Positions 10,360 to 42,513 of a stretch of 42,513 bases of DNA are shown here, piece after piece. The notes beneath the pieces were generated by a model. The model was given only the letters and a program-made list of their open reading frames with translations. It searched no databases and had not been told where the DNA came from. The position numbers and the translations under genes were made by a program. Position 1 is the stretch's first letter. Every line of letters starts with the position of its first letter. Origin of the DNA: Candidatus Nomurabacteria bacterium. GTDB taxonomy: Bacteria; Patescibacteriota; Saccharimonadia; Saccharimonadales; Saccharimonadaceae. The stretch covers positions 1 through 42,513 of the forward strand of contig JAITKW010000066.1 in NCBI GenBank assembly GCA_031278275.1, written 5' to 3'.

Positions 10360-10878
10360 CTATAAAGCGGTTTCCACAGCCGCCCAAGTAGCTTCCTCTT
10401 TATGCTCGGGGACGATGATTGCCACTTGGTCGCCCTCTTTGATTTTGAAATAAGTGACGCTGGCGAGCAAAATCTTGTATTCCTTGCCGCTGGCCTCCAC
10501 GAAATAAGCTCCGTCATGATTGACTAAGGTGCCAATCAATTGTTTGCGTGGCGTTTTGTCAATCTGTTTGTAAATGAAACTGCCGTCTTCATCAATGGTT
10601 AACTTCAGTAAATCCCCCTCCACTAATTTGGATTTTGAAGCATAATTGGCGGGTACGGGGTAACTTTTGCCCTCTGGGCCTAACATAATTTGACCGTCAA
10701 AAACCCCTTCAATTACTTTTCCGCTAACTGGATCGCCCTTGGCGCTAGTGCGGGAAACGGCTTTTCCGTCATCTCCGAGCAAGCTACCCAATAATTCTTT
10801 TGCAGCGGCAACGTTAGTTTCTGCCTCCTGTAAAAGACCTTTTAATCGTTTAATTTGTTTATCTGGTACCTCAGACAT
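10360..10878 (-). CDS. Hypothetical protein (172 aa; N-terminal helix plus two beta-rich KOW/SH3-like-looking segments)
   Basis: The start at ATG 10878 (MSEVPDKQIKRLKGLL) is preceded by CAGGAGCGAGAC (AGGAG SD). The longer track ORF (to 10977) would run over its own promoter. I recognised no family. Confidence 0.6.
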   Translation of the reverse strand: MSEVPDKQIKRLKGLLQEAETNVAAAKELLGSLLGDDGKAVSRTSAKGDPVSGKVIEGVFDGQIMLGPEGKSYPVPANYASKSKLVEGDLLKLTIDEDGSFIYKQIDKTPRKQLIGTLVNHDGAYFVEASGKEYKILLASVTYFKIKEGDQVAIIVPEHKEEATWAAVETAL

Positions 10879-10914
10879 GTCTCGCTCCTGTCTGTTTTCA
10901 ATAATAATACTTAT

Positions 10915-10944
10915 AATATATATCGTTAGGTGGGTGAAAGTCAA
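10915..10944 (-). promoter_or_regulatory. Sigma70-like promoter for the 172-aa ORF
   Basis: The minus strand reads TTGACT-18 nt-TATATT. Confidence 0.5.
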
Positions 10945-10988
10945 CTTTTTTTGTGGAAAACTTTGAAAAAAACGCAAAATGTCGTGAA

Positions 10989-12020
10989 TTACTTATGTTT
11001 TTTATGGATATTAACGTATTGCAAATTGCCATCGTTGTCGTAACTAATATCCAACTTGCCACTTTTGGCGTATTTTTTAATCGTTTTTAACGTGCGATTG
11101 TCAGATTTGTCAAAATCATCGCGACTAATATGCTGATTTTTGTTGACAGTGAAACTAACGTCATAAATATCCGTTTGGCGTAAAATCCCATCGTCTTGAT
11201 AATTGTCTAACTTGAATAAATCCTTGACCTTGATAGCCCCAGCGGTCAATTTTTCCAAGATCAAGCGACTTTTTTTTGGGTTTTTGAATATGGTTTGCTT
11301 TTGTTTGGCGGAAATATCAACCAGTCCCAGCTCCTTGATACGCTCCAGATTAGATATAATCCCCTTGTGGGTATGCATTTTATACGTAATAGGTTTTCCG
11401 GTCTTGTCTTCTGAGGGAAGATTTAATCCCAAGTTCAAGATTTCAGTCGTGATGGCCACAGGCTGCAATTCGCGGGGTAAACTGCGTGTAGCGCTGATTG
11501 ATTCAAACAGCCCTTGTTCCAAAGTATGGCTCCCGTAACGCACCCGCGTGTGAGTGTTATGCGGGCGGTAACTTATGGTATTTGACAGTAATTTATACGT
11601 TCCAGCCATGAGAATTGGTATCGCTGCCACCGAGCCGACTGTCGCACCAATCTCTGCAGCTCCAATCATCGCACCGCCCAGCCCTAGCCCAACCAATGGC
11701 ACGGCGCTCGCCACCATCACACCGCCAGCCTTAATAGTGTCCGCCAAATGCGTTTTTGCCAAACGCTGCCTTTTGGCGGTGTCGGTGTTTACTAAAGTTT
11801 CTGGAGCTGGCGTAACTTCAATTGATGTTGCATTTTGAGCTTCGTTCTCATAATTTTGTGATAAAATATTCCTCAATTGCTCCAACCGCTGGGCTTTTTG
11901 GGACTTGGCCTCTTTGGTTTCTTGCGCACTTTCCGTTTCCAAAGGAGTACTCAGTTCATGATTTGGTTGCGGTATGTGATAGGTTTCCAAATCTGGTGCT
12001 TGGCGCATACGTTCTGACAT
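10989..12020 (-). CDS. Hypothetical membrane-anchored protein (343 aa)
   Basis: The N-terminal approximately 115 residues are disordered and Glu/Gln/Thr-rich. They are followed by a Gly-rich TM hairpin (GGVMVASAVPLVGLGLGGAMIGAAEIGATVGSVAAIPILMAG) and an AT-rich C-terminal domain. I moved the start to ATG 12020 because the track start (12125) overlaps the rplL terminator. I recognised no family. Confidence 0.55.
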   Translation of the reverse strand: MSERMRQAPDLETYHIPQPNHELSTPLETESAQETKEAKSQKAQRLEQLRNILSQNYENEAQNATSIEVTPAPETLVNTDTAKRQRLAKTHLADTIKAGGVMVASAVPLVGLGLGGAMIGAAEIGATVGSVAAIPILMAGTYKLLSNTISYRPHNTHTRVRYGSHTLEQGLFESISATRSLPRELQPVAITTEILNLGLNLPSEDKTGKPITYKMHTHKGIISNLERIKELGLVDISAKQKQTIFKNPKKSRLILEKLTAGAIKVKDLFKLDNYQDDGILRQTDIYDVSFTVNKNQHISRDDFDKSDNRTLKTIKKYAKSGKLDISYDNDGNLQYVNIHKKHK

Positions 12021-12111
12021 AACTTTATTGTAACCTAATTTTTCCACAGATAAAACAGATTTGGGAAATAAATCGTTGTATTTTTGTCCAAACCTTTTTA
12101 TATTAAATACC

Positions 12112-12136
12112 AAAAAACCACTCAAAACTTGAGTGG
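12112..12136 (-). terminator. Intrinsic terminator after rplL
   Basis: The minus strand reads CCACTCAA-GTT-TTGAGTGG followed by TTTTTT. Confidence 0.8.
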
Positions 12137-12166: not shown

Positions 12167-12553
12167 TTATTGGAGCTCGACAGTTGCGCCGGCTTCTTCT
12201 AAGGCTTTTTTCATGGTTTCGGCCTCGTCTTTAGCAACTTTTTCTTTGACAGTTGCGGGAGCGCCGTCCACAATGGCTTTGGCTTCGCCAAGCCCCAAGC
12301 CTGTGGCTTCTTTGACCGCTTTGATTACGGCGATTTTTTGGGCACCCGCCTCTTTCAAAATCACGTTATATTCGCTCTTGGTTTCTTCTTGGGCTGCTGC
12401 GCCGTCTTCGCCACCAGCCACCGCCCCCGCTACGGCTACTGTGGCAGCCGCTGGCTCAATGCCATATTCATCTTTTAACACGTTTTTCAATTCGTTGACT
12501 TCCAAAACCGTCAACTTGGTTAGCTCTTCAGCTAATTTTTTTATATCAGCCAT
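12167..12553 (-). CDS. rplL: 50S ribosomal protein L7/L12
   Basis: 128 aa with [33 protein letters not shown] and a C-terminal [34 protein letters not shown]. Confidence 0.97.
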
Positions 12554-12649
12554 CTTAAAATTGGAAACTTTTTCAAAAAAAGTTCCGCTCCTTTCTTGTT
12601 TTTATGCCCTTTTTGACAAAGGGCGGTCTTATAATTATAATAGTTGCTT

Positions 12650-13174
12650 TTATGCGGTTGCTTTAGCTTCAACTCCGTCAAGCAAAGCGTGCAAATTGCC
12701 AGACAAGGCGTTTACCGTGTCGTTGACTGGTGAAAGTAGCATGGCTACGGTTTCAGCAATCAACTGTTGCTTGCTCGGGAGTTTGGCGAGAGCTAGCACG
12801 TTTTCTTGGGTCATGGTTTTGCCGTCACTGGCAAACCCGCCCTGAATCTGCAAAGCGGCATGGGTTTTGGCGAACTTATCCAAAACTCCAGCCGGTGTCA
12901 CTTCGTCACTATCGCTCAAAGCGTACAGCAGTTGACCAGTCAATCCGGTCGTATCTGTATCTTTGTAAACTCCGATTTCATTCATCGCCACTTTCAATAA
13001 GCGGTTCTTGACAATCCGAATCTTGACACCGTTCTCGCGGGCATTTTTGCGTAGCTCTTCCATATCTGCCACCGACAGCCCATCATATTTGGCATAAACC
13101 GTCATTTTGGCATTTTCCAGCAAAGCTTTCATATCAGCAACTAAAGCTTGTTTTTTCTCGCGACTAATCGCCAT
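12650..13174 (-). CDS. rplJ: 50S ribosomal protein L10
   Basis: 174 aa: MAISREKKQALVADMKALLENAKMTVYAKYDGLSVADMEELRKNARENGVKIRIVKNRL. Confidence 0.95.
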   Translation of the reverse strand: MAISREKKQALVADMKALLENAKMTVYAKYDGLSVADMEELRKNARENGVKIRIVKNRLLKVAMNEIGVYKDTDTTGLTGQLLYALSDSDEVTPAGVLDKFAKTHAALQIQGGFASDGKTMTQENVLALAKLPSKQQLIAETVAMLLSPVNDTVNALSGNLHALLDGVEAKATA

Positions 13175-33710: not shown

Positions 33711-34553
33711 CTACCCAAACAAAGGGTGAGGAATCTGGAACTCGTCCAGCAACGGAACCAACCCGTCCCAGACCGCTTTGCGGTCATAAAACGGAAGTCG
33801 GATTTGGTTAAAGACAGCCTCTCCGCTTGGTGTCCCGAGTTGCGGCGCAATGAGCGCCACGAGGTGCTGCGCCGCACCGTATGCGCGCGGGACCAATGCC
33901 CGCACCTGCGCGTCATTAAGGAAAAACACATCTTTCTCAATGAGCTGGTTCGGCTTGCTGACGGCTTTTGCGTTATCACGCCGTGCCAGTAGCTGGGATG
34001 ACGTGATGTTAAGCGTTGCCATCGCTATTACCTCCTCTTGGTCAGCTACGTCCACGACAAAGGGCGCGCCAAACGAGGTAACATCTTTCAGGGAAAAGCC
34101 AACTTCTTCGCTTTCCCCCGCTTCTCCGAACAGGTTGGTTTTCACCAACTCCGCGACAGTGCCAGACTTTTCCTTGCGCAAAAATCCGGCAACGCAGCCC
34201 AAGCAGCCGCGATCGCCACCATTCAACAAGGAACGGCGGATTGCGACATTGAGGCTATCGCTGGTTTTAACGGACAACGATACGCCAGTGGGCTTTTTTG
34301 ACAAGCCCAGCTCGTGCATCGCCATGAACACGGGGTGGTATGCTCGCGTTACGGTTCCATTAGCGAAGTTAATAAGCTGATTCTTGGTGAATCCCTTATC
34401 AATTTGCTCTTGGACTTTGCCGAACGCCTCCTGGAGTTTTGTCTTCTCCAGGTCTTTCAGCTTGCGACCCAGATATTCTTTGACACTGACCAAGCTGTCA
34501 ATGTCAAAGTCATACGTTAACGGTTGGTCGAGCCTTACCCTTTTCAGTTCCAT
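33711..34553 (-). CDS. Hypothetical protein (280 aa) inserted between fusA and tuf
   Basis: The start ATG 34553 (MELKRVRLDQ) is preceded by AAAAGGAGAG. It has its own promoter and terminator. Its sequence is visibly GC-richer than the flanks, with many shadow ORFs in other frames. I recognised no family or motif. Confidence 0.65.
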   Translation of the reverse strand: MELKRVRLDQPLTYDFDIDSLVSVKEYLGRKLKDLEKTKLQEAFGKVQEQIDKGFTKNQLINFANGTVTRAYHPVFMAMHELGLSKKPTGVSLSVKTSDSLNVAIRRSLLNGGDRGCLGCVAGFLRKEKSGTVAELVKTNLFGEAGESEEVGFSLKDVTSFGAPFVVDVADQEEVIAMATLNITSSQLLARRDNAKAVSKPNQLIEKDVFFLNDAQVRALVPRAYGAAQHLVALIAPQLGTPSGEAVFNQIRLPFYDRKAVWDGLVPLLDEFQIPHPLFG

Positions 34554-34606
34554 TTTTTTCTCTCCTTTTCTGAAAAAGAGCAATAACTAATCGTATATCT
34601 GCCGTC

Positions 34607-34690: not shown

Positions 34691-36778
34691 TTATTTGGTT
34701 GAGCGTTTTGCGATGATTTCCTCTGCGATGTTTGGTGGGACTTCTTCGTAGCTGTCTAGCTCCATCGTGGAGGCGGCGCGCCCTTGCGACATAGAGCGCA
34801 AATCGGAAGTATAGCCAAAAAGGTTGGACAAAGGAACGAGCGCACGAATCAACTTGGCTCCGCCGGGCAAATCTTCCATTGCGTCAATCCGGCCGCGCCG
34901 AGAATTGAGGTCGCCAATCACGTCACCCATAAACTCCTCTGGGGTAGTGGCTTCTAATTTCATGACTGGTTCCAAAATCACCGGTTTCGCCTTTTTGATA
35001 CCATCACGGGTGGCGATAGCCCCAGCCAAATGGAATGCCAGCTCTGATGAGTCCACATCATGATACGAACCGTCATAAAGCGTGGCTTTGACATCTACTA
35101 CTGGATAACCAGCAATCACGCCACCATCCAAAGTTTCTTTAATACCCAACATAACTGGCTTGCGATACTCCAAAGGCACCACGCCACCTTTAATTTGGTC
35201 AACAAACTCAAAGCCTTTACCCGTTTCGTTGGGCTCAAACTTAATCCAAACATCGCCGTATTGACCGCGACCGCCGGATTGCTTGATGTGTTTGCCCTGC
35301 ACCTCGGACACCCCACGAATGGTTTCGCGATACGCAACTTGCGGCTCGCCGGTGTTAGCCTCAACGTTAAACTCGCGCTTTAGGCGATCAATAATAATTT
35401 CCAAATGCAGTTCGCCCATGCCAGAAAGAATGGTTTGTCCGGTTTCTTCATCGGTGTGTATCCTGAAAGTGGGATCTTCCTCCGCCAAGCGACTCAAACC
35501 AATCCCCATTTTTTCTTGGTCAGCTTTAGTTTTGGGCTCCACCGCAATTGACACTGGCGGATCGGGGAACTCAATTGACTCCAAAATAATTGGGTGGGCG
35601 GTGTCACAAAGGGTCGTGCCAGTAGTCGTGTCTTTCAGCCCCACCACCGCAGCAATATCGCCCGCGCTGATTTCTTGAATATCCTCACGCTTGTCGGCGT
35701 GCATTCGCACCAAACGCCCCACACGTTCTTTGTTGCCAGTTGAAGCGTTGAGAATATAACTTCCAGCCTCTATTTTGCCAGAATAAACACGAATAAAAAT
35801 CAACTTTCCCACAAACGGATCAGTGGCGATTTTGAAAGCCAAAGCACTAAGCGGTTCTTTGGCATCTGGCTTACGCTCAACTTCTTCGCCATTCTTGGGA
35901 TTTTTGCCCCAAATTGCCGGAATATCAAGTGGGCTTGGCAAGTAATCGTTCATGAGATCCAAAACTTTTTCCACAATCACGCCACGACCGTCACCGCCAG
36001 TAACCAAGAAAAAGTCGCCCGCCAACACTCTTTTGCGAAGTGCGCGTTTCAATTCTTCGTTCGTGATAGAAGCTTCGCCTTTATCCAAAAATCGCTCAAA
36101 CAGCTCATCTTCGGCTTCAACTGCCGCCTCCACCAAGATAGCGCGTGCGTTTTTGGCTTTTTCTGCCAGCTCAGCCGGAATCTCACCCTCAATCAAGGCA
36201 TGGTCGGAAAACTCTTTGTAAGTGTAAGACTTCATATCAATCAAATCCACCACGCCGTTAATGTCTTTTTCAAAACCAATTGGCAAATGTATCGGCAAGG
36301 CGTTTTTGGAGAGTCGCTTGTGAATGCTGTCCAAAGACTTATAAAAATCGCCACCGATTTGATTGATTTTATTGATGAAACAGATACGTGGCACGTGATA
36401 TTTGTTTGCTTGTCGCCAAACCGTTTCCGATTGTGCCTCCACGCCCATTTTGCCATCAAACACCACGACCGCACCGTCTAAAACGCGCAACGAACGCTCC
36501 ACTTCAGCGGTAAAATCAATGTGTCCAGGCGTATCAATGATGTTGATTTTGTGATCTTTCCAAAAAGCCGTGACCGCCGCTGAAGTGATTGTAATGCCAC
36601 GCTCGCGCTCTTGTGCCATCCAGTCAGTGGTGGTTTCGCCTTCGTGCACCGCACCGATTTTATGGTTTAACCCCGTGCGATACAAAATCCCCTCCGTGGT
36701 GGTGGTTTTTCCTGCGTCAATGTGAGCGATAATGCCGACATTACGCAAGTTCTCTAGTGCTACAGTTTTTTCTGCCAT
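34691..36778 (-). CDS. fusA: Elongation factor G
   Basis: 695 aa with [25 protein letters not shown] and NKINQ. Confidence 0.98.
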
Positions 36779-36849
36779 TTTCTTTCCTTGATTATAGTTT
36801 TATTTGGGTTGTTTTTTGTTTATGATAGTCAAAAACAACGCTCTGGGAA

Positions 36850-36858
36850 ATTATAACA
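36850..36858 (-). promoter_or_regulatory. Consensus extended -10 (TGtTATAAT) upstream of fusA; possible internal promoter
   Basis: The minus strand reads ATATGTTATAAT with a weak -35. A leader of about 90 nt contains the hairpin GUUGUUUUUG...CAAAAAACAAC. Confidence 0.4.
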
Positions 36859-36899
36859 TATATTCTTAAAAATTGTGGTTTTTCTGTCATAAACTTATA

Positions 36900-37379
36900 T
36901 TAGCTTCGCGCAAAGTGCGCAAAAGCGCGGTTGGCCTCCGCCATGCGGTGGGTGTCTTCCTTTTTCTTAAAGGCGGCACCGGTTTGGTTATAAGCGTCAA
37001 TGATTTCAAGGGCAAGACGCTCTTTGTATGGCGTACCTTTTCGCGCACGGGCGGACTGAACGAGCCACGAGAAAGCAAAATGTAATTGGCGATGTCCGGA
37101 AATGGGGAATGGGATTTGGTAGTTGGCACCACCGACACGGCGGGATTTGACTTCAAAATCTGGCGAAATGTGCTTTAAGGCTTCCTCAAAAAGTTCTTGG
37201 GGATTTTCGGATTTCAGATTTTTGGCGGCCTTTTCCAAAGCGTAATAAACCGCACGCTCAGCGACTTGTTTTTTGCCGTTTTTGATGGATTTATTGATGA
37301 GTCGTTGGACTAAGATGCTTTGATAACGGCGGTCAGGGTTGACTTTTCTTTGTAATGATTTGGTAACTTTGCGTGGCAT
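36900..37379 (-). CDS. rpsG: 30S ribosomal protein S7
   Basis: 159 aa with [19 protein letters not shown] and a C-terminal HRMAEANRAFAHFAR. Confidence 0.97.
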   Translation of the reverse strand: MPRKVTKSLQRKVNPDRRYQSILVQRLINKSIKNGKKQVAERAVYYALEKAAKNLKSENPQELFEEALKHISPDFEVKSRRVGGANYQIPFPISGHRQLHFAFSWLVQSARARKGTPYKERLALEIIDAYNQTGAAFKKKEDTHRMAEANRAFAHFARS

Positions 37380-37792
37380 TATTTACCTTCTTTCTTGGCA
37401 CCATACTTGCTACGACCTTGTTTGCGATTTTGTACGCCTTGTAAATCCAACGTGCCACGCACGACATGGTAGCGCACGCCCGGTAAATCTGGCACGCGTC
37501 CGCCGCGCACCAACACAACGGCGTGTTCTTGGAGGTTGTGTCCTTCGCCACCGATATACGCCCAAACTTCCGTACCGTTAGTTAAGCGTACGCGCGCAAC
37601 CTTGCGAAGGGCGGAGTTCGGCTTTTTGGGGGTTTTGGTGGTGACTTTGATGCAAACCCCACGTTTCAAGGGGGCGTTTTGTTGATAATATTTGGTTTTC
37701 AAAGTGTTTTGAATCGTAAGCAACGCAGGCGACTTGCTTTTTTTGCCAGAAGTCTTGCGTGGCTTGCGGATTAACTGATTGATTGTTGGCAT
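37379..37792 (-). CDS. rpsL: 30S ribosomal protein S12 (13-aa insertion; Pro at the Lys88-equivalent position)
   Basis: 137 aa with [30 protein letters not shown] and [13 protein letters not shown]. Its TAATG stop/start overlaps rpsG. Confidence 0.97.
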
Positions 37793-37910
37793 TGATTAAA
37801 TAAGAAAACTTGTTTCTTCCTTTCCTTAATTATTACGCTTGAAATAAACCCAAACGTGATTTTAATAATATAAATCACAGGTGACGAAACCAGCAACTTT
37901 TCGTCCCCGC

Positions 37911-37946
37911 TTGAAACTCTTTATCAAGATGTTATCAGAGTTTCAA
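37911..37946 (-). promoter_or_regulatory. Perfect 10-bp inverted repeat bracketing the rpsL -10 (operator-like)
   Basis: The plus strand has ttgaaactct (37911-37920) and agagtttcaa (37937-37946), separated by 16 nt that contain the -10 hexamer. Confidence 0.4.
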
Positions 37947-37957
37947 AAAGATGTCAA
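37929..37957 (-). promoter_or_regulatory. Sigma70-like promoter of rpsL-rpsG-fusA
   Basis: The minus strand reads TTGACA-17 nt-TGaTAACAT. A leader of about 130 nt contains two 7-bp hairpins (GACGAAA/UUUCGUC and GUGAUUU/AAAUCAC). Confidence 0.6.
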
Positions 37958-37964
37958 TAGCACT

Positions 37965-38100
37965 GGTCTTGTTGTGTAACTACCCATTCACGGGGCTCTT
38001 TAATCTGTGACGACAGATTAAAGCGAGGAATTGCCTGACACCAATAACGATTGGCTGTCACAATTCCGTACCCGCGAATGGGTAGTTACACAACAAGACC
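37965..38100 (-). repeat. 136-nt palindromic element: 30-bp outer stem enclosing two hairpins (three-way junction); MITE/REP-like element or structured RNA
   Basis: Arms 37965-37994 and 38071-38100 are complementary at 29/30 positions. The single mismatch becomes a U:G wobble only in the minus-strand transcript. The inner hairpins are 37998-38023 (11 bp) and 38028-38066 (16 bp with bulges). Confidence 0.8.
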
Positions 38101-38178
38101 CCACACATCAAAATGAGTAATTACGCGACAAAACTCCGTGTATTAAACCCTGCGAAAAAAGAATTATGCGACTAGTTT

Positions 38179-38718
38179 TTACAAATCTACCACTGCGTCT
38201 TCGGTGGCGAGGTCTTCGCCCCTTATGGCTTCGGTGATGTCGTCAAAATCTTCATCTTCGGTAAAATCGTCCACGACCGCCATTTTGTTGGACTTTACGC
38301 CAGTGCCAACGGGGATTTTACGCCCAATAATCACATTTTCTTTGAGTCCGACAAGACGATCGACTTTGCCAGAGATGGCGGCAGAAATCAGGACGCGGGT
38401 AGTGTCTTGGAAAGAGGCGGCAGACAAGAAACTGTCGCTGTAAATCGCTACTTTAGTGATACCAAGCAATAATTGGTTGTATTTGCAAGGAGTTTTGCCC
38501 GCTTTTTCCAATTTTTCGTTGGCTTTGATGGCGGAGGATTTGCTGACAATGTCGCCAATGATGAAGCTGGAATCGCCCGCATCTTCAATCATCACCCGAC
38601 TAAACATTTGCCGAACGATGATTTCAAGGTGTTTGTCGGAAACTTCTTGCCCCTGCGCTGCGTAAATCCTGAGAACTTCGTTGATAATGTAGCGTTCGGT
38701 AGCTTCAATGCCTCTGTA
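38179..38718 (-). CDS. rpoC: RNA polymerase beta-prime, C-terminal 179 codons, in frame with and immediately downstream of the TAA at 38719-38721
   Basis: YRGIEATERYIINEVLRIYAAQGQEVSDKHLEIIVRQ-MFSRVMIEDAGDS..LLGITKV..SFLSAASFQDTTRVL..GLKENVIIGRKIPVGTG. The first ATG is at 38607. There is no ATG, GTG or TTG between the stop and that ATG. Confidence 0.75.
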   Translation of the reverse strand, partial: YRGIEATERYIINEVLRIYAAQGQEVSDKHLEIIVRQMFSRVMIEDAGDSSFIIGDIVSKSSAIKANEKLEKAGKTPCKYNQLLLGITKVAIYSDSFLSAASFQDTTRVLISAAISGKVDRLVGLKENVIIGRKIPVGTGVKSNKMAVVDDFTEDEDFDDITEAIRGEDLATEDAVVDL

Positions 38719-41700
38719 TTACATCAAATCAAGTAGGTTCAGCGAACCTGCGGTCAGGCGGTCACCAGCTTTCACTGCGCCACCGGATTTAACCACAATC
38801 TCCACTTCATCAGGCACCTCAATTTTGACGGGAGCTGACGTGGCACCCACAATCACGATTTCGTCATCATTGGCTTGTTCTACTACGCCATCAATAGGGG
38901 CAACGAGCGGTGCTTTGTCGTCAGATTTGGCGGCGATGATGTCGCCCACGCGCACGGCTTTGCCGTTTTTGACTTTCATCTTGCGACCGTCAAGTTTCAA
39001 ATGTTCTATCTTGCCAGACGAGGGAGTAACTTGGATTATAAAGCGTTTGCCATCTTCCCAAACTTCCACCATGCCGTCAATTGGCGATACGGTGGCTTGA
39101 CCTTTCGGCGTTCGGGCTTCAAACAATTCTTCAACGCGTGGCAAACCTTTAGAAATGGCACCGGAACCAGCCACACCGGACGAGTGGAAAGTGTCCAAAG
39201 TCAACTGCGTGCCAGGTTCGCCGACTGATTGCGCCGCAATCACGCCGACTGGTTGGTTGGCTTCCACCAATTTTTTGGTTGACATATCCAGGCCATAACT
39301 TTTCTTGGACACGCCGTCCAAGTTTTTGGTGGAGAGAATGCTGTAGATTTTTACGCTGTCCACGCTCTCATCATCTTCAATTTCGTCCGCAATCTCACGT
39401 GTGATTAGCTCGCCAGCCTCCACATGCCCAGATACGGTTTCGGCAGCATAGCGCCCAGCCAAACGGTTGGAAAACTCAATCATAGTCAATTCAGTTTCAT
39501 TACGATAAATCGTAAAGCCCTCATCTTCGCCCTCTTCGTTGGTCGTGAAAACATCTTGCGCAACATCAACCAAGCGTCTGGTCAAATAGCCCGAGTCGGC
39601 CGTCTTGAGAGCGGTTGAAACTAAGCCTTGCCTTGCGCCACGTGTTGCCACAAAAGATTCCAGCAAAGACAAGCCTTTTTTGAAATTGGAGCGAATGGGC
39701 AGTTCCATCTCGCGACCATTGACATCAACCATAATTCCAATCATCGCAGAAGCCAGTTTGATATTTGACACGGTGCCACGTGCGCCAGAGTTGACCATTA
39801 AACTGATGTTTGTGTCAACGCTGTCAATTCTGGTTTTCAAAAGGTCGGAGATTTTGTTGTCAACGTTGCGCCAATTGGCAACCGTCAAGTTATGGCGCTC
39901 TTTGTTGGTAATCAACCCCTCGTTATATTGCTCAGCGATTTGTGCCGCTCGCCCCGTACCCTCCGCCACCATTTCAGCCACTTCCGGAAAGTCAACATAA
40001 TCGTCTTTGGATGTGGACACGCCCGCAATCGTTTCGTACTTGAAAGACAAAGCCTTAACCGCATCGGCAATTTTCACGGTCATATCGGCACCATATTTTG
40101 CAAAAATCTTGTTCATGACTTTTTTCAATTGTTTTTTGGTTTGAGCCGAATTGTCAAAGGGATAATCTTCCGGCAATACCTCGTTGAACAGCACTCGCCC
40201 AAAAGTGGTTTCGCGCATTTCACCTTTGAATGGTAATTTAATGGGAGATTGTAGTTGGATTTTTTGATTGTCATAAGCCATCTCAGCTTCATAAACTGAA
40301 GAAAAAGTTTTCAAATCGCCCTTGATTTTGCTGTAAGTGAGGTAGTAAATCCCCAGTACCACGTCTTGTTCAATAGATAAAACCGGCGCGCCGTCAGCGG
40401 GTTTTAATAAATTGTTTACCACACTAATCAAGCCCCCGGCTTCTCTTTGAGCGTCTTCGGATATGGGCAAATGCACCGCCATTTGGTCACCGTCATAGTC
40501 CGCATTGAAACCTTTAGCGACCAACGGGTGCAATTGAATGGCTTGACCGTCAATTAACTTCGGCTGAAAGGCTTGAATGGAGAGCTTGTGGAGGGTCGGC
40601 GCACGGTTAAGCAACACGTATTTGTTAGTAATCACTTCGTCCAAGCCGTCCCAAACCACCGCCTCGTTGGATTCTATCATGTGGTTGGCGTTTTTGATGT
40701 TGTTGGCGTGTTCGTTGCGGATTAACCACGAAATCACGAACGGCCTGAACAGCTCCATCGCCATTTGTTTTGGCAAACCGCATTGATTGATGTTTAGCTC
40801 AGGCCCAACCACGATGACCGAGCGCCCAGAATAATCCACACGCTTGCCCAGCAAGTTCTGGCGGAAGCGACCTTGTTTGCCTTTTAGCATATCAGATAAA
40901 GATTTCAGTTGGCGTTTGTTGTTGGACGATTTGGCGGTACGGTTGCCATGCGTGGCGGAGTTGTCAATAAGGGAATCAACCGCTTCTTGCAACATGCGCA
41001 TTTCGTTACGGCAAATCACGTCTGGAGCGTTCAAGTCCATCAGTTTTTTCAGGCGGTTGTTGCGGTTGATGACACGGCGATATAAATCATTGATGTCTGA
41101 GGTGACGAAACGCCCGCCCGCTAGTGACACAATTGGACGCAAATCTGGCGGAATGACAGGAATAATTGTCAACATTAAATCAGCTGGCTTAATCCCCGCT
41201 GAGCGCATACCTTCCATTACTTTCAACCTTTTGACCAGTTTTTTCTCTTTTTGACCGCGTGCGCTTTTCGCGGTCTCGGTCAATTCCTCAATCGTTTTGT
41301 CAATATTGATTTCGTCCAGCAACTCTTTGATAGCCACGCCACCCATGCCAACCTTAACCAAATCTTCATATTCTTCCGGCAACTCCGCTTTTTCAGATTC
41401 AGTCATTAAACTGTATTTATTTAACTTGGTCAACCAATTTTTTCTTTCCGTATAATCGGTCTCCAAACTTTCCACCTCTTCGGCTTGGGCTTCCGCTAAA
41501 GCCTTGATGTCCGCATTTTTATCTTTAGCAGCGTCTTCGTAACGGATTTTGATAGCTTCGCGCGCCGCTACAGTTTGGGCTTCCAGCTCCTTGAGTTTTT
41601 GGTCTTTGGCCTCATCATCAACGGAAATAATCACAAAACTGGCAAAATAAATCACTTTTTCAATATTTTTCACCGTCATGTCGAGCAAAAGACCGATAGC

Positions 41701-42054
41701 GCTGGGCACGCCACGCATAAACCAAATATGCGCCACCGGCACCGCTAAAGTGATATGCCCCATACGTTCGCGGCGCGAAATGGCTTTGGTCACCAAGTTC
41801 CCATCACGGTCAACCGCCGCTTCGCGACTCCTGATGCCTTTCAATTTGCCATCATGCGGGTTGATGTCTTTGACTGGACCAAAAATCCTTTCGCAAAACA
41901 ACCCATCACGTTCAGGTTTTTGCGTGCGATAATTGATGGTTTCCGGTTTCAAAACTTCGCCATAACTCCAATTTAACACATCTTCACTGCTTGCCACGCT
42001 CAAACGAATGGAATCAAAGTCGTTCGTGCCAATATATTGATCAAATCGTCCCAT
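38719..42054 (-). CDS. rpoC: RNA polymerase beta-prime, N-terminal 1111 codons (ends at the in-frame TAA)
   Basis: Motifs: RRERMGHITLAVPVAHIWF, NADYDGDQMAVH (catalytic), SGARG and GVIAAQSVGEPGTQLTL. Its start is coupled to the rpoB stop (TAAAATG). Confidence 0.95.
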   Translation of the reverse strand: MGRFDQYIGTNDFDSIRLSVASSEDVLNWSYGEVLKPETINYRTQKPERDGLFCERIFGPVKDINPHDGKLKGIRSREAAVDRDGNLVTKAISRRERMGHITLAVPVAHIWFMRGVPSAIGLLLDMTVKNIEKVIYFASFVIISVDDEAKDQKLKELEAQTVAAREAIKIRYEDAAKDKNADIKALAEAQAEEVESLETDYTERKNWLTKLNKYSLMTESEKAELPEEYEDLVKVGMGGVAIKELLDEINIDKTIEELTETAKSARGQKEKKLVKRLKVMEGMRSAGIKPADLMLTIIPVIPPDLRPIVSLAGGRFVTSDINDLYRRVINRNNRLKKLMDLNAPDVICRNEMRMLQEAVDSLIDNSATHGNRTAKSSNNKRQLKSLSDMLKGKQGRFRQNLLGKRVDYSGRSVIVVGPELNINQCGLPKQMAMELFRPFVISWLIRNEHANNIKNANHMIESNEAVVWDGLDEVITNKYVLLNRAPTLHKLSIQAFQPKLIDGQAIQLHPLVAKGFNADYDGDQMAVHLPISEDAQREAGGLISVVNNLLKPADGAPVLSIEQDVVLGIYYLTYSKIKGDLKTFSSVYEAEMAYDNQKIQLQSPIKLPFKGEMRETTFGRVLFNEVLPEDYPFDNSAQTKKQLKKVMNKIFAKYGADMTVKIADAVKALSFKYETIAGVSTSKDDYVDFPEVAEMVAEGTGRAAQIAEQYNEGLITNKERHNLTVANWRNVDNKISDLLKTRIDSVDTNISLMVNSGARGTVSNIKLASAMIGIMVDVNGREMELPIRSNFKKGLSLLESFVATRGARQGLVSTALKTADSGYLTRRLVDVAQDVFTTNEEGEDEGFTIYRNETELTMIEFSNRLAGRYAAETVSGHVEAGELITREIADEIEDDESVDSVKIYSILSTKNLDGVSKKSYGLDMSTKKLVEANQPVGVIAAQSVGEPGTQLTLDTFHSSGVAGSGAISKGLPRVEELFEARTPKGQATVSPIDGMVEVWEDGKRFIIQVTPSSGKIEHLKLDGRKMKVKNGKAVRVGDIIAAKSDDKAPLVAPIDGVVEQANDDEIVIVGATSAPVKIEVPDEVEIVVKSGGAVKAGDRLTAGSLNLLDLM

Positions 42055-42055
42055 T

Positions 42056-42513
<458 letters not shown>

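Follow-up and report, generated by a model that had tools for sequence, protein, structure and literature searches.

A single in-frame TAA interrupts rpoC in a Saccharibacteria contig and is probably a non-adaptive nonsense change

The rpoC gene of the Saccharibacteria (TM7) DNA analysed here, a stretch of 42,513 nucleotides hereafter termed the window, occupies positions 42054..38179 of the minus strand and is collinear with other beta-prime genes, being interrupted by one in-frame TAA. We consider this TAA most probably a non-adaptive nonsense change (probability roughly 0.7), either an error of sequencing, amplification or assembly or a recent deleterious allele, within an ordinary single-gene rpoC. 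We infer that the stop is not functional biology; a functional split of the protein and a functional readthrough, even when combined, appear unlikely. The earlier note had offered three options, namely an assembly error or population nonsense variant, a split beta-prime with re-initiation, and programmed readthrough, and had chosen none of them. The present analysis favours the first and leaves the other two unsupported.

The locus contains the following features, given in window coordinates.

38722..42054, minus strand: N-terminal piece of rpoC, 1111 codons, covering Rpb1 domains 1-4 and the beginning of domain 5.
38719..38721, minus strand: the in-frame TAA, codon 1112, placed by frame translation and homologue alignment.
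38608..38718, minus strand: 37 in-frame codons without ATG, GTG or TTG, encoding the conserved block YRGIEATERYIINEVLRIYAAQGQEVSDKHLEIIVRQ.
38707..38709, minus strand: ATT codon, 9 nt past the stop, taken by NCBI as the start of a 176-aa CDS.
38179..38607, minus strand: C-terminal ORF of 142 codons (P0121), the IMG call, starting at the Met of RQMFSRV.
42056..42513, minus strand: 3' end of rpoB, truncated by the contig end; the rpoB stop adjoins the rpoC start.
36900..37792, minus strand: rpsL and rpsG, the genes immediately following rpoC (synteny context).
34691..36778: fusA, an ORF of 695 aa whose start reads ...AHIDAGKTT.

Translation of the rpoC frame from ATG 42054 yields 1111 codons ending in TAGSLNLLDLM, then TAA at 38721..38719, and beyond it 179 sense codons (YRGIEATERY...AVVDL) up to the final TAA at 38181..38179. 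This bears out the earlier reading that the frame stays open for 37 codons past the stop, runs into the ORF at 38179-38607, and encodes in these orphan codons a conserved beta-prime block; all of the sequence statements made there hold. The internal stop is codon 1112 of 1291, equivalent to a position near residue 1222 in the E. coli protein. Pfam domains PF04997, PF00623, PF04983, PF05000 and PF04998 follow in this order across both pieces, and the last of them (RNA_pol_Rpb1_5) is split by the stop: positions 1-122 of its profile precede the stop and 210-258 follow it. The catalytic motif NADYDGDQ is found in the N-terminal piece, beta-prime chains in the PDB match the rpoC product at E = 1e-55 to 1e-73, and the Met that opens the 142-codon ORF is universally conserved in the beta-prime alignment. 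The gene order rpoB-rpoC-rpsL-rpsG-fusA is that of a bacterial rpoC locus. Altogether, both pieces are unmistakably beta-prime, and their arrangement is no chance of ORFs. Public annotation presents rpoC as two CDS at NCBI, of 1111 aa and of 176 aa, the second starting from ATT 38709; the 1111-aa product (P0242) is common to NCBI and IMG, and the 176-aa product (P0241) reads M followed by EATERY.

Alignment of both window pieces with eleven homologous proteins, 13 sequences in all, showed that the pieces abut with exactly one column missing, in which all eleven homologues have K or R. This agrees with the claims of the earlier note that the gene is collinear without an indel and that the stop sits at a variable Lys/Arg-type position. 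The two closest relatives, L082/P0001 (78% protein identity) and L083/P0002 (74%), carry AAA at the codon of the stop, and L082, L083 and the window also agree in the flanking codons, GAT TTG ATG and TAC. TAA is a single base off this AAA, as had been anticipated from the letters of the stop codon. The orthologous codon in seven GTDB Saccharibacteria species representatives is CGT, CGA, CGC or GAA, and a stop in none of them. It had been proposed beforehand that a sense codon at the orthologous position of sister genomes would mark the stop as a sequencing artefact, and at the level of related species a sense codon is indeed what was found. The split is not conserved among related genomes, and the stop appears to be unique to the window among the relatives examined.

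A degenerate DNA pattern with TRR (TAA, TAG, TGA or TGG) at the rpoC codon, checked to match the window and matching 7 related loci in its NNN form, gave no match in 241 million JGI metagenome records; the degenerate DNA pattern for NLLDLM-x-YRGIEATE likewise gave none in the JGI metagenomes, from which either the species is lacking or its contig is withheld. Exact-protein look-ups with the 1111-aa ORF, the 142-aa ORF and two alternative starts returned no further contig, the 142-aa ORF as a protein query matched nothing outside the window's own cluster, and the scan of GTDB species representatives revealed no relative above 70% identity. A protein search with the variable stretch that precedes the stop gave no matches; as even P0001 went unreturned, this null is put down to a limit of the word index and not counted as evidence. 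A widespread rpoC split was also considered from the uniformly short matches in protein searches and was rejected; the match lengths appear to reflect candidate ranking.

Against L082, the 37 orphan codons show 12 synonymous differences and one non-synonymous codon difference; against L083, they show 17 synonymous and 4 non-synonymous differences. Since the codons differ almost only synonymously, they must have been translated for practically the whole of the divergence, and the stop is therefore very young. The same pattern bears on the idea that the rpoC copy in the window is a genuine pseudogene, the enzyme being supplied by a second intact rpoC or by a genome copy with the AAA allele. The non-synonymous decay expected of a long-standing pseudogene is absent here, and the gene lies in its canonical rpoB-to-fusA context with no other defect. 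Saccharibacteria genomes are small and typically carry one rpoC. The locus is represented by one contig only, leaving room for a second copy, and the contig ends inside rpoB, as can happen where strains or copies differ; we nevertheless regard a pseudogene as extremely unlikely.

Counting of the ORF terminators in the window (n=57) gave 35 TAA, 12 TGA and 10 TAG, which shows the genetic code to be standard, since TAA closes most of the ORFs. The genes cited in the earlier note as ending normally, tuf, rpsJ, rplC, rpsG and rpoB, do all terminate in TAA. A reassignment of TAA to an amino acid in this lineage has nothing beyond the one codon to recommend it and is effectively refuted by these counts: far from being rare, TAA terminates more window ORFs than TGA or TAG does, among them conserved ribosomal protein genes whose ends coincide with those of their homologues, and it recurs in-frame in no other conserved gene there.

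We further considered a beta-prime made in two pieces, in which translation would terminate at the UAA, a fraction of ribosomes would re-initiate at the AUU 9 nt further on, and the resulting 1111-aa and 176-aa products would assemble into active RNA polymerase, a capacity that split subunits, both natural and engineered, do have. The ATT at this distance, from which the 176-aa CDS is already annotated, fits such a scheme, as do the perfectly preserved downstream sequence and the location of the break at a variable K/R/E position shortly after the beta-rich domain. Natural splits of beta-prime occur in cyanobacteria, archaea and jumbo phages (PMC7598289). A distance of 9 nt past the stop is one at which some termination-reinitiation is still possible, and in E. 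coli a small number of gene pairs lie about +10 nt apart (PMC10666635). Because the efficiency of re-initiation drops steeply with distance (PMC10666635), a 1:1 stoichiometry for an essential enzyme is unlikely.

The surroundings of the stop are without any adaptation to a split. The 37 codons after the internal TAA contain no canonical start (ATG, GTG or TTG), so that ATG 38607 is the first one and ATT 38707-38709 stands as the near-cognate candidate, both as the earlier note had described. No Shine-Dalgarno site precedes ATG 38607 (-1.7 kcal/mol versus a window median of -7.2). At ATT 38709, AGAGG ends 1 nt upstream, too close for Shine-Dalgarno function, and the Shine-Dalgarno score is equalled by about 15-25% of internal rpoC positions. 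AUU is in addition a weak start, and the ATT is ancestral, not newly gained, as it is likewise present in the closest relative L082, whose rpoC is intact. The downstream piece has neither a canonical start nor a ribosome-binding site of its own, and the coding strand from the stop to 39000 shows no promoter-like site. Together with the break inside a Pfam domain and the lack of a split in any relative examined, these features render a two-piece beta-prime rather unlikely.

The AlphaFold model of the C-terminal region of an intact relative is weak (mean pLDDT 55) and places the site loosely in a short helix just after the beta-rich domain. As far as this model goes, a break at a variable residue a few residues past the beta-rich domain could be structurally tolerable. 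Severinov et al. reportedly found in 1996 that fragments of E. coli beta-prime are able to assemble. Still less probable than a two-piece protein as such is a Saccharibacteria lineage with a newborn beta-prime split at about E. coli position 1222 and a C-terminal piece made by AUU re-initiation. Such a split, doubtful as it is, would lie at a site not known before, between the jaw-like beta domain and conserved region H, and the essential gene would have been caught before a start codon or ribosome-binding site evolved.

Readthrough offers a different route, in which the stop would be real and full-length beta-prime would be produced by a near-cognate Lys, Gln or Tyr tRNA or by an ochre suppressor encoded elsewhere. 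The frame is identical on both sides of the stop, and the downstream codons are under purifying selection, as this route would have it. By proteogenomics, bacterial pseudogenes were shown to have their in-frame stops read through at a low level, mainly where UAG is followed by C, unlike the UAA-U of the window (PMC9122581). The T that follows the internal TAA, which the earlier note had taken for a strong termination context, is indeed present. UAA-U is among the most efficient terminators. No unusually stable RNA fold was found near the stop (z-score 0.37), an Rfam search of the window gave no matches, and no tRNA genes are encoded in the window, so there is no suppressor tRNA there. An efficient ochre suppressor would also be costly, since TAA closes 35 of the 57 window ORFs. 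The marks of programmed readthrough, namely a conserved stop, a leaky context or a stimulatory structure, are all missing from a UAA-U stop that no relative examined shares, and we hold readthrough to be very unlikely.

As to the quality of the contig, no second interrupted gene was found in the 42.5 kb window. The interruption-free remainder of the contig is an observation against an artefact, and because it is clean the assembly is not generally error-prone. The rplJ/rplL pair (12167..13174) was considered as a second in-frame interruption and turned out to be two normal genes with several stops between them. Look-ups with rpsL and rpsG identified a Logan contig of run SRR14710901 (1286 nt) that is 100% identical over the rpsL/rpsG stretch and ends at 37983, 736 nt short of the internal stop; it is the one independent assembly of this strain to be identified. 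A literature search for this run found no paper. Artefactually broken rpoC calls are frequent in public assemblies. Of two C-terminal fragments on long contigs that were checked, one (L084) is explained by a contig end and the other (L085) comes from a frameshift-ridden assembly.

We propose, returning to the non-adaptive nonsense change, that an AAA Lys codon of a Saccharibacteria rpoC would have become TAA by a coding-strand A>T change at window position 38721, where the coding strand has T and the plus strand A. The change may be an error introduced by sequencing, amplification or assembly that became fixed in the consensus; alternatively, the sampled DNA may have contained a deleterious allele of recent origin. 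A short-read assembler normally requires a variant in more than one read, and the T may therefore truly occur in the sampled DNA; with the 42.5 kb contig otherwise free of errors, this clean substitution could thus also be a real allele. Under either option, the working enzyme of the organism would contain full-length beta-prime, about 1291 residues long; the two-ORF look, including the NCBI 176-aa CDS with its ATT start, would be a product of automatic gene calling. A stop one base off a sense codon, no compensating features and purifying selection downstream are what an error or a non-fixed allele would leave behind, and all of these are seen in the window.

Should the stop be an artefact or a transient allele, which we judge most likely, the case is a matter of curation only, and the two public CDS should be merged or flagged. 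If it is real and fixed, it would add a natural split site not seen before in the largest subunit of RNA polymerase and provide a rare snapshot of an essential gene surviving the first step of fission via re-initiation or readthrough, relevant to RNA polymerase assembly and translation in reduced-genome epibionts.

As the two ORFs of the window would, cyanobacterial and plastid rpoC1-rpoC2 and the jumbo phages provide beta-prime as two polypeptides from adjacent genes. As far as is known, the cyanobacterial, plastid and phage splits are conserved over whole lineages, and the second gene has a proper start. In contrast, the break in the window lies about 180 codons from the C-terminus, is found on one contig and is followed by no canonical start. 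Cyanobacterial and jumbo-phage beta-prime are split directly after the DPBB domain (PMC7598289). The window stop is situated elsewhere than directly after this domain.

In archaea, the split site precedes the trigger-loop region and the C-terminal subunit has about 390 aa, whereas the window stop lies beyond the jaw-like beta domain, with only 179 aa to follow. To our knowledge, the archaeal A' and A'' genes each have a start of their own, and their conservation is universal. The division into RpoA1 (A') and RpoA2 (A'') is likewise a split of the largest subunit away from the DPBB-proximal site of cyanobacteria (PMC7598289). The so-called pseudo-pseudogenes share with the window an in-frame stop and a full-length product perhaps made at a low level, but the readthrough documented for them was mainly at UAG followed by C in non-essential genes (PMC9122581). 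The window stop is UAA-U, and the gene that it interrupts is essential and must be highly expressed.

The 'split' essential genes of draft MAGs and SAGs likewise present a single-copy gene as two adjacent CDS, with one lesion, perfectly conserved downstream sequence, no signals for the second piece and a rare ATT start assigned by the pipeline. The lesion in the window, by contrast, is a clean substitution, unlike those of an indel-rich long-read assembly.

The rpoC open reading frame lies on the minus strand, starting at an ATG (42054) immediately 3' of the rpoB stop codon and running for 1111 codons that end with ...DRLTAGSLNLLDLM. It is closed by an internal TAA at 38721..38719 (minus strand), the next base of which is T. 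The same frame then continues for 179 further sense codons; the initial 37 of them (38718..38608, minus strand; YRGIEATERYIINEVLRIYAAQGQEVSDKHLEIIVRQ) contain no ATG, GTG or TTG. Two candidate starts lie downstream of the TAA:

38709..38707, minus strand: ATT codon, 9 nt past the rpoC TAA
38607..38179, minus strand: C-terminal rpoC ORF of 142 codons, whose ATG at 38607 is the first canonical start past the TAA

The ORF, the TAA, the startless codons, the ATT and the T after the TAA agree with the earlier note, all of whose sequence statements hold.

Both pieces represent β', with the Pfam Rpb1 domains 1 to 5 in order. The TAA cuts domain 5 (PF04998), leaving profile positions 1-122 upstream and 210-258 downstream. 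Solved β' structures matched at E = 1e-55 to 1e-73, and the TAA falls at about residue 1222 of E. coli β' (numbered from the alignment offsets of query 143-317 against chain 1189-1363) and residue 1337 of T. thermophilus. Homologues place the organism in the Saccharibacteria (TM7). The window is a complete contig of 42,513 nt present in both NCBI and JGI/IMG, in which rpoC is called as 1111 aa plus 176 aa and 1111 aa plus 142 aa, respectively. As the 176-aa product starts with M-EATERY, the NCBI call uses ATT 38709 as the start; the "split" is thus already in public annotation, via automatic gene calling. In the protein collection, the 1111-aa fragment (P0242) is clustered at 90% identity with peptides of 50-57 aa to which it is unrelated (MAWKQTGQLSLADSL...), one of them being the cluster representative; this seems to be a fault of the clustering or the index rather than biology.

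When the two pieces were aligned with eleven homologues, they met with exactly one column absent and no indel, and this column is K or R in 11 of 11 homologues. The two closest relatives, L082 and L083 (short JGI metagenome contigs with 78% and 74% protein identity, respectively), have AAA at the equivalent codon, with flanking codons (GAT TTG ATG ... TAC) identical to those of the window. A single A-to-T change therefore separates the window TAA from the ancestral lysine codon. Seven GTDB Saccharibacteria species representatives carry CGT, CGA, CGC or GAA at this codon, and no GTDB representative is closer than 70% identity. The comparison of orthologous positions proposed in the earlier note accordingly found a sense codon in all these relatives. 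Moreover, a degenerate DNA pattern of the flanking motif, in which the codon had to be TAA, TAG, TGA or TGG, gave no match in 241 million JGI metagenome records; the pattern matched the window itself, and its unrestricted form matched seven related loci. The window's own species was not found among the JGI metagenome contigs with this approach.

Over the 37 codons without a start, 12 synonymous and one non-synonymous codon differences separate the window from L082, and 17 and four, respectively, separate it from L083; the following 100 codons show the same pattern. Because a long-untranslated stretch would not keep such synonymous-dominated differences, the codon comparison points to a TAA that is very young or to a downstream block that is still being translated. 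We propose, with a probability of about 0.7, that the TAA is a non-adaptive nonsense substitution and that the functional rpoC is one gene of ~1291 codons. The consensus would have acquired a wrong base (in sequencing, amplification or assembly), or the sampled DNA would contain a deleterious nonsense allele of recent origin. Among the three readings in the earlier note, an assembly error or population nonsense variant is thus the likely one, leaving a split β' and readthrough as weaker rivals. That a second intact rpoC copy sits elsewhere in the genome is hardly to be expected.

Reassignment of TAA to an amino acid can practically be dismissed, as TAA ends 35 of 57 ORFs (each of at least 60 codons, picked greedily without overlaps), compared to 12 for TGA and 10 for TAG; the window therefore uses the standard code with TAA as the main terminator. 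No tRNA genes were found within the window. No further interrupted gene emerged when the window was scanned for long open segments parted by one in-frame stop, in agreement with the Pfam annotation of the non-ribosomal ORFs, and therefore the contig is not an indel-ridden long-read assembly. The rplJ/rplL pair, considered as a second interruption, was rejected as two normal genes. By contrast, the related 84-kb Saccharibacteria contig L085 (JGI Ga0645779_03361) has rpoB, rpoC, rpsG and fusA all divided among several short gene calls apiece, a pattern usual in indel-rich assemblies that recalls how most fragmentary rpoC entries of the protein database are artefacts. The window contig ends inside rpoB (42056-42513, minus strand; last 151 codons only), 3.8 kb upstream of the TAA, and a break within this conserved single-copy gene may reflect low coverage or strain heterogeneity there. 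Exact-protein look-ups located RpsL and RpsG of the window on a Logan contig of run SRR14710901 as well; this contig of 1286 nt matches window 36698..37983 at 100% identity and ends 736 nt short of the TAA. Neither these look-ups nor protein searches retrieved a Logan gene fragment spanning the rpoC junction.

The main rival to a nonsense substitution is a real two-piece β', the second piece being made by re-initiation at the AUU. The otherwise clean contig would fit it, as would the position of the TAA at a variable residue a few positions past a β-rich domain (AlphaFold model of the intact relative, weak at a mean pLDDT of 55), and assembly of split large subunits is known. The ATT is also just 9 nt from the TAA, a conceivable distance for re-initiation. 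However, AUU is a weak start codon, and the AGAGG ending 1 nt upstream has an unusable Shine-Dalgarno spacing, while 15-25% of internal rpoC positions score equally well. Since the intact relative L082 carries the same ATT, it was not acquired for re-initiation. Most window genes have a strong Shine-Dalgarno sequence of the AAGGAG or GGAGG type (median duplex energy -7.2 kcal/mol). ATG 38607 scores -1.7 kcal/mol, is the universally conserved Met of RQMFSRV in the alignment, and lies 111 nt past the TAA; termination-reinitiation is nearly abolished already at an intergenic distance of ~20 nt (Huber et al. 2023, PMC10666635). On the coding strand, no promoter-like site was found from the TAA to 39000, and the RNA fold around the TAA is no more stable than that of shuffled sequence (z = 0.37). 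Altogether, start codon, Shine-Dalgarno, promoter and RNA fold revealed no adaptation to a two-gene arrangement. As the split is also confined to the window contig, and the essential enzyme requires its subunits at 1:1 stoichiometry, a two-piece β' is unlikely, and so is its most novel form, a split that has only just arisen at a new position and is expressed by re-initiation at AUU. Readthrough of the TAA, which would yield the full-length chain, is highly improbable given the unfavourable UAA-U context; documented bacterial cases are chiefly UAG followed by C (PMC9122581).

Elsewhere in the window, the 387-aa ribosomal protein L1 ORF (13428-14591, minus strand) has its Pfam domain at residues 189-378 only, preceded by a ~160-aa Lys/Glu/Thr-rich low-complexity extension; recA is its upstream neighbour, and there is no adjacent rplK (L11) gene. 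The 137-aa L23 ORF (29127-29540, minus strand) has its domain at residues 2-91 and a ~45-aa C-terminal extension. Between fusA and tuf, an ORF of 290 aa without a Pfam match (33711-34583, minus strand; best E = 0.21) interrupts the normally contiguous str operon. Two adjacent ORFs of 205 aa and 378 aa (10360-12125, minus strand), also without significant Pfam match, lie between rplJ/rplL and a DnaX-like clamp-loader gene of DNA polymerase III. The rpoC-rpsL spacer (37793-38178, minus strand) spans 386 nt and includes a good sigma-70-like promoter match ahead of rpsL (37929-37957, minus strand; TTGACA-17-TAACAT, TG upstream), and nothing resembling a Shine-Dalgarno sequence lies within 20 nt of the rpsL start. 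Across 1-42513, no Rfam family reached the gathering score, and this includes the ribosomal-protein leaders often found in other phyla.

Natural β' splits are conserved lineage-wide, and their second gene has a proper start. In cyanobacteria and jumbo phages the break immediately follows the DPBB domain, and in archaea the largest subunit is split at yet another location (PMC7598289), whereas the window rpoC is broken ~180 codons from the C-terminus. It shares none of the tested defining features of natural splits, namely position, conservation and, for the second gene, its own start and ribosome-binding site, and should not be classed with them. Rather, it resembles a class common in draft genomes, in which an essential gene appears as two CDS because of one lesion.
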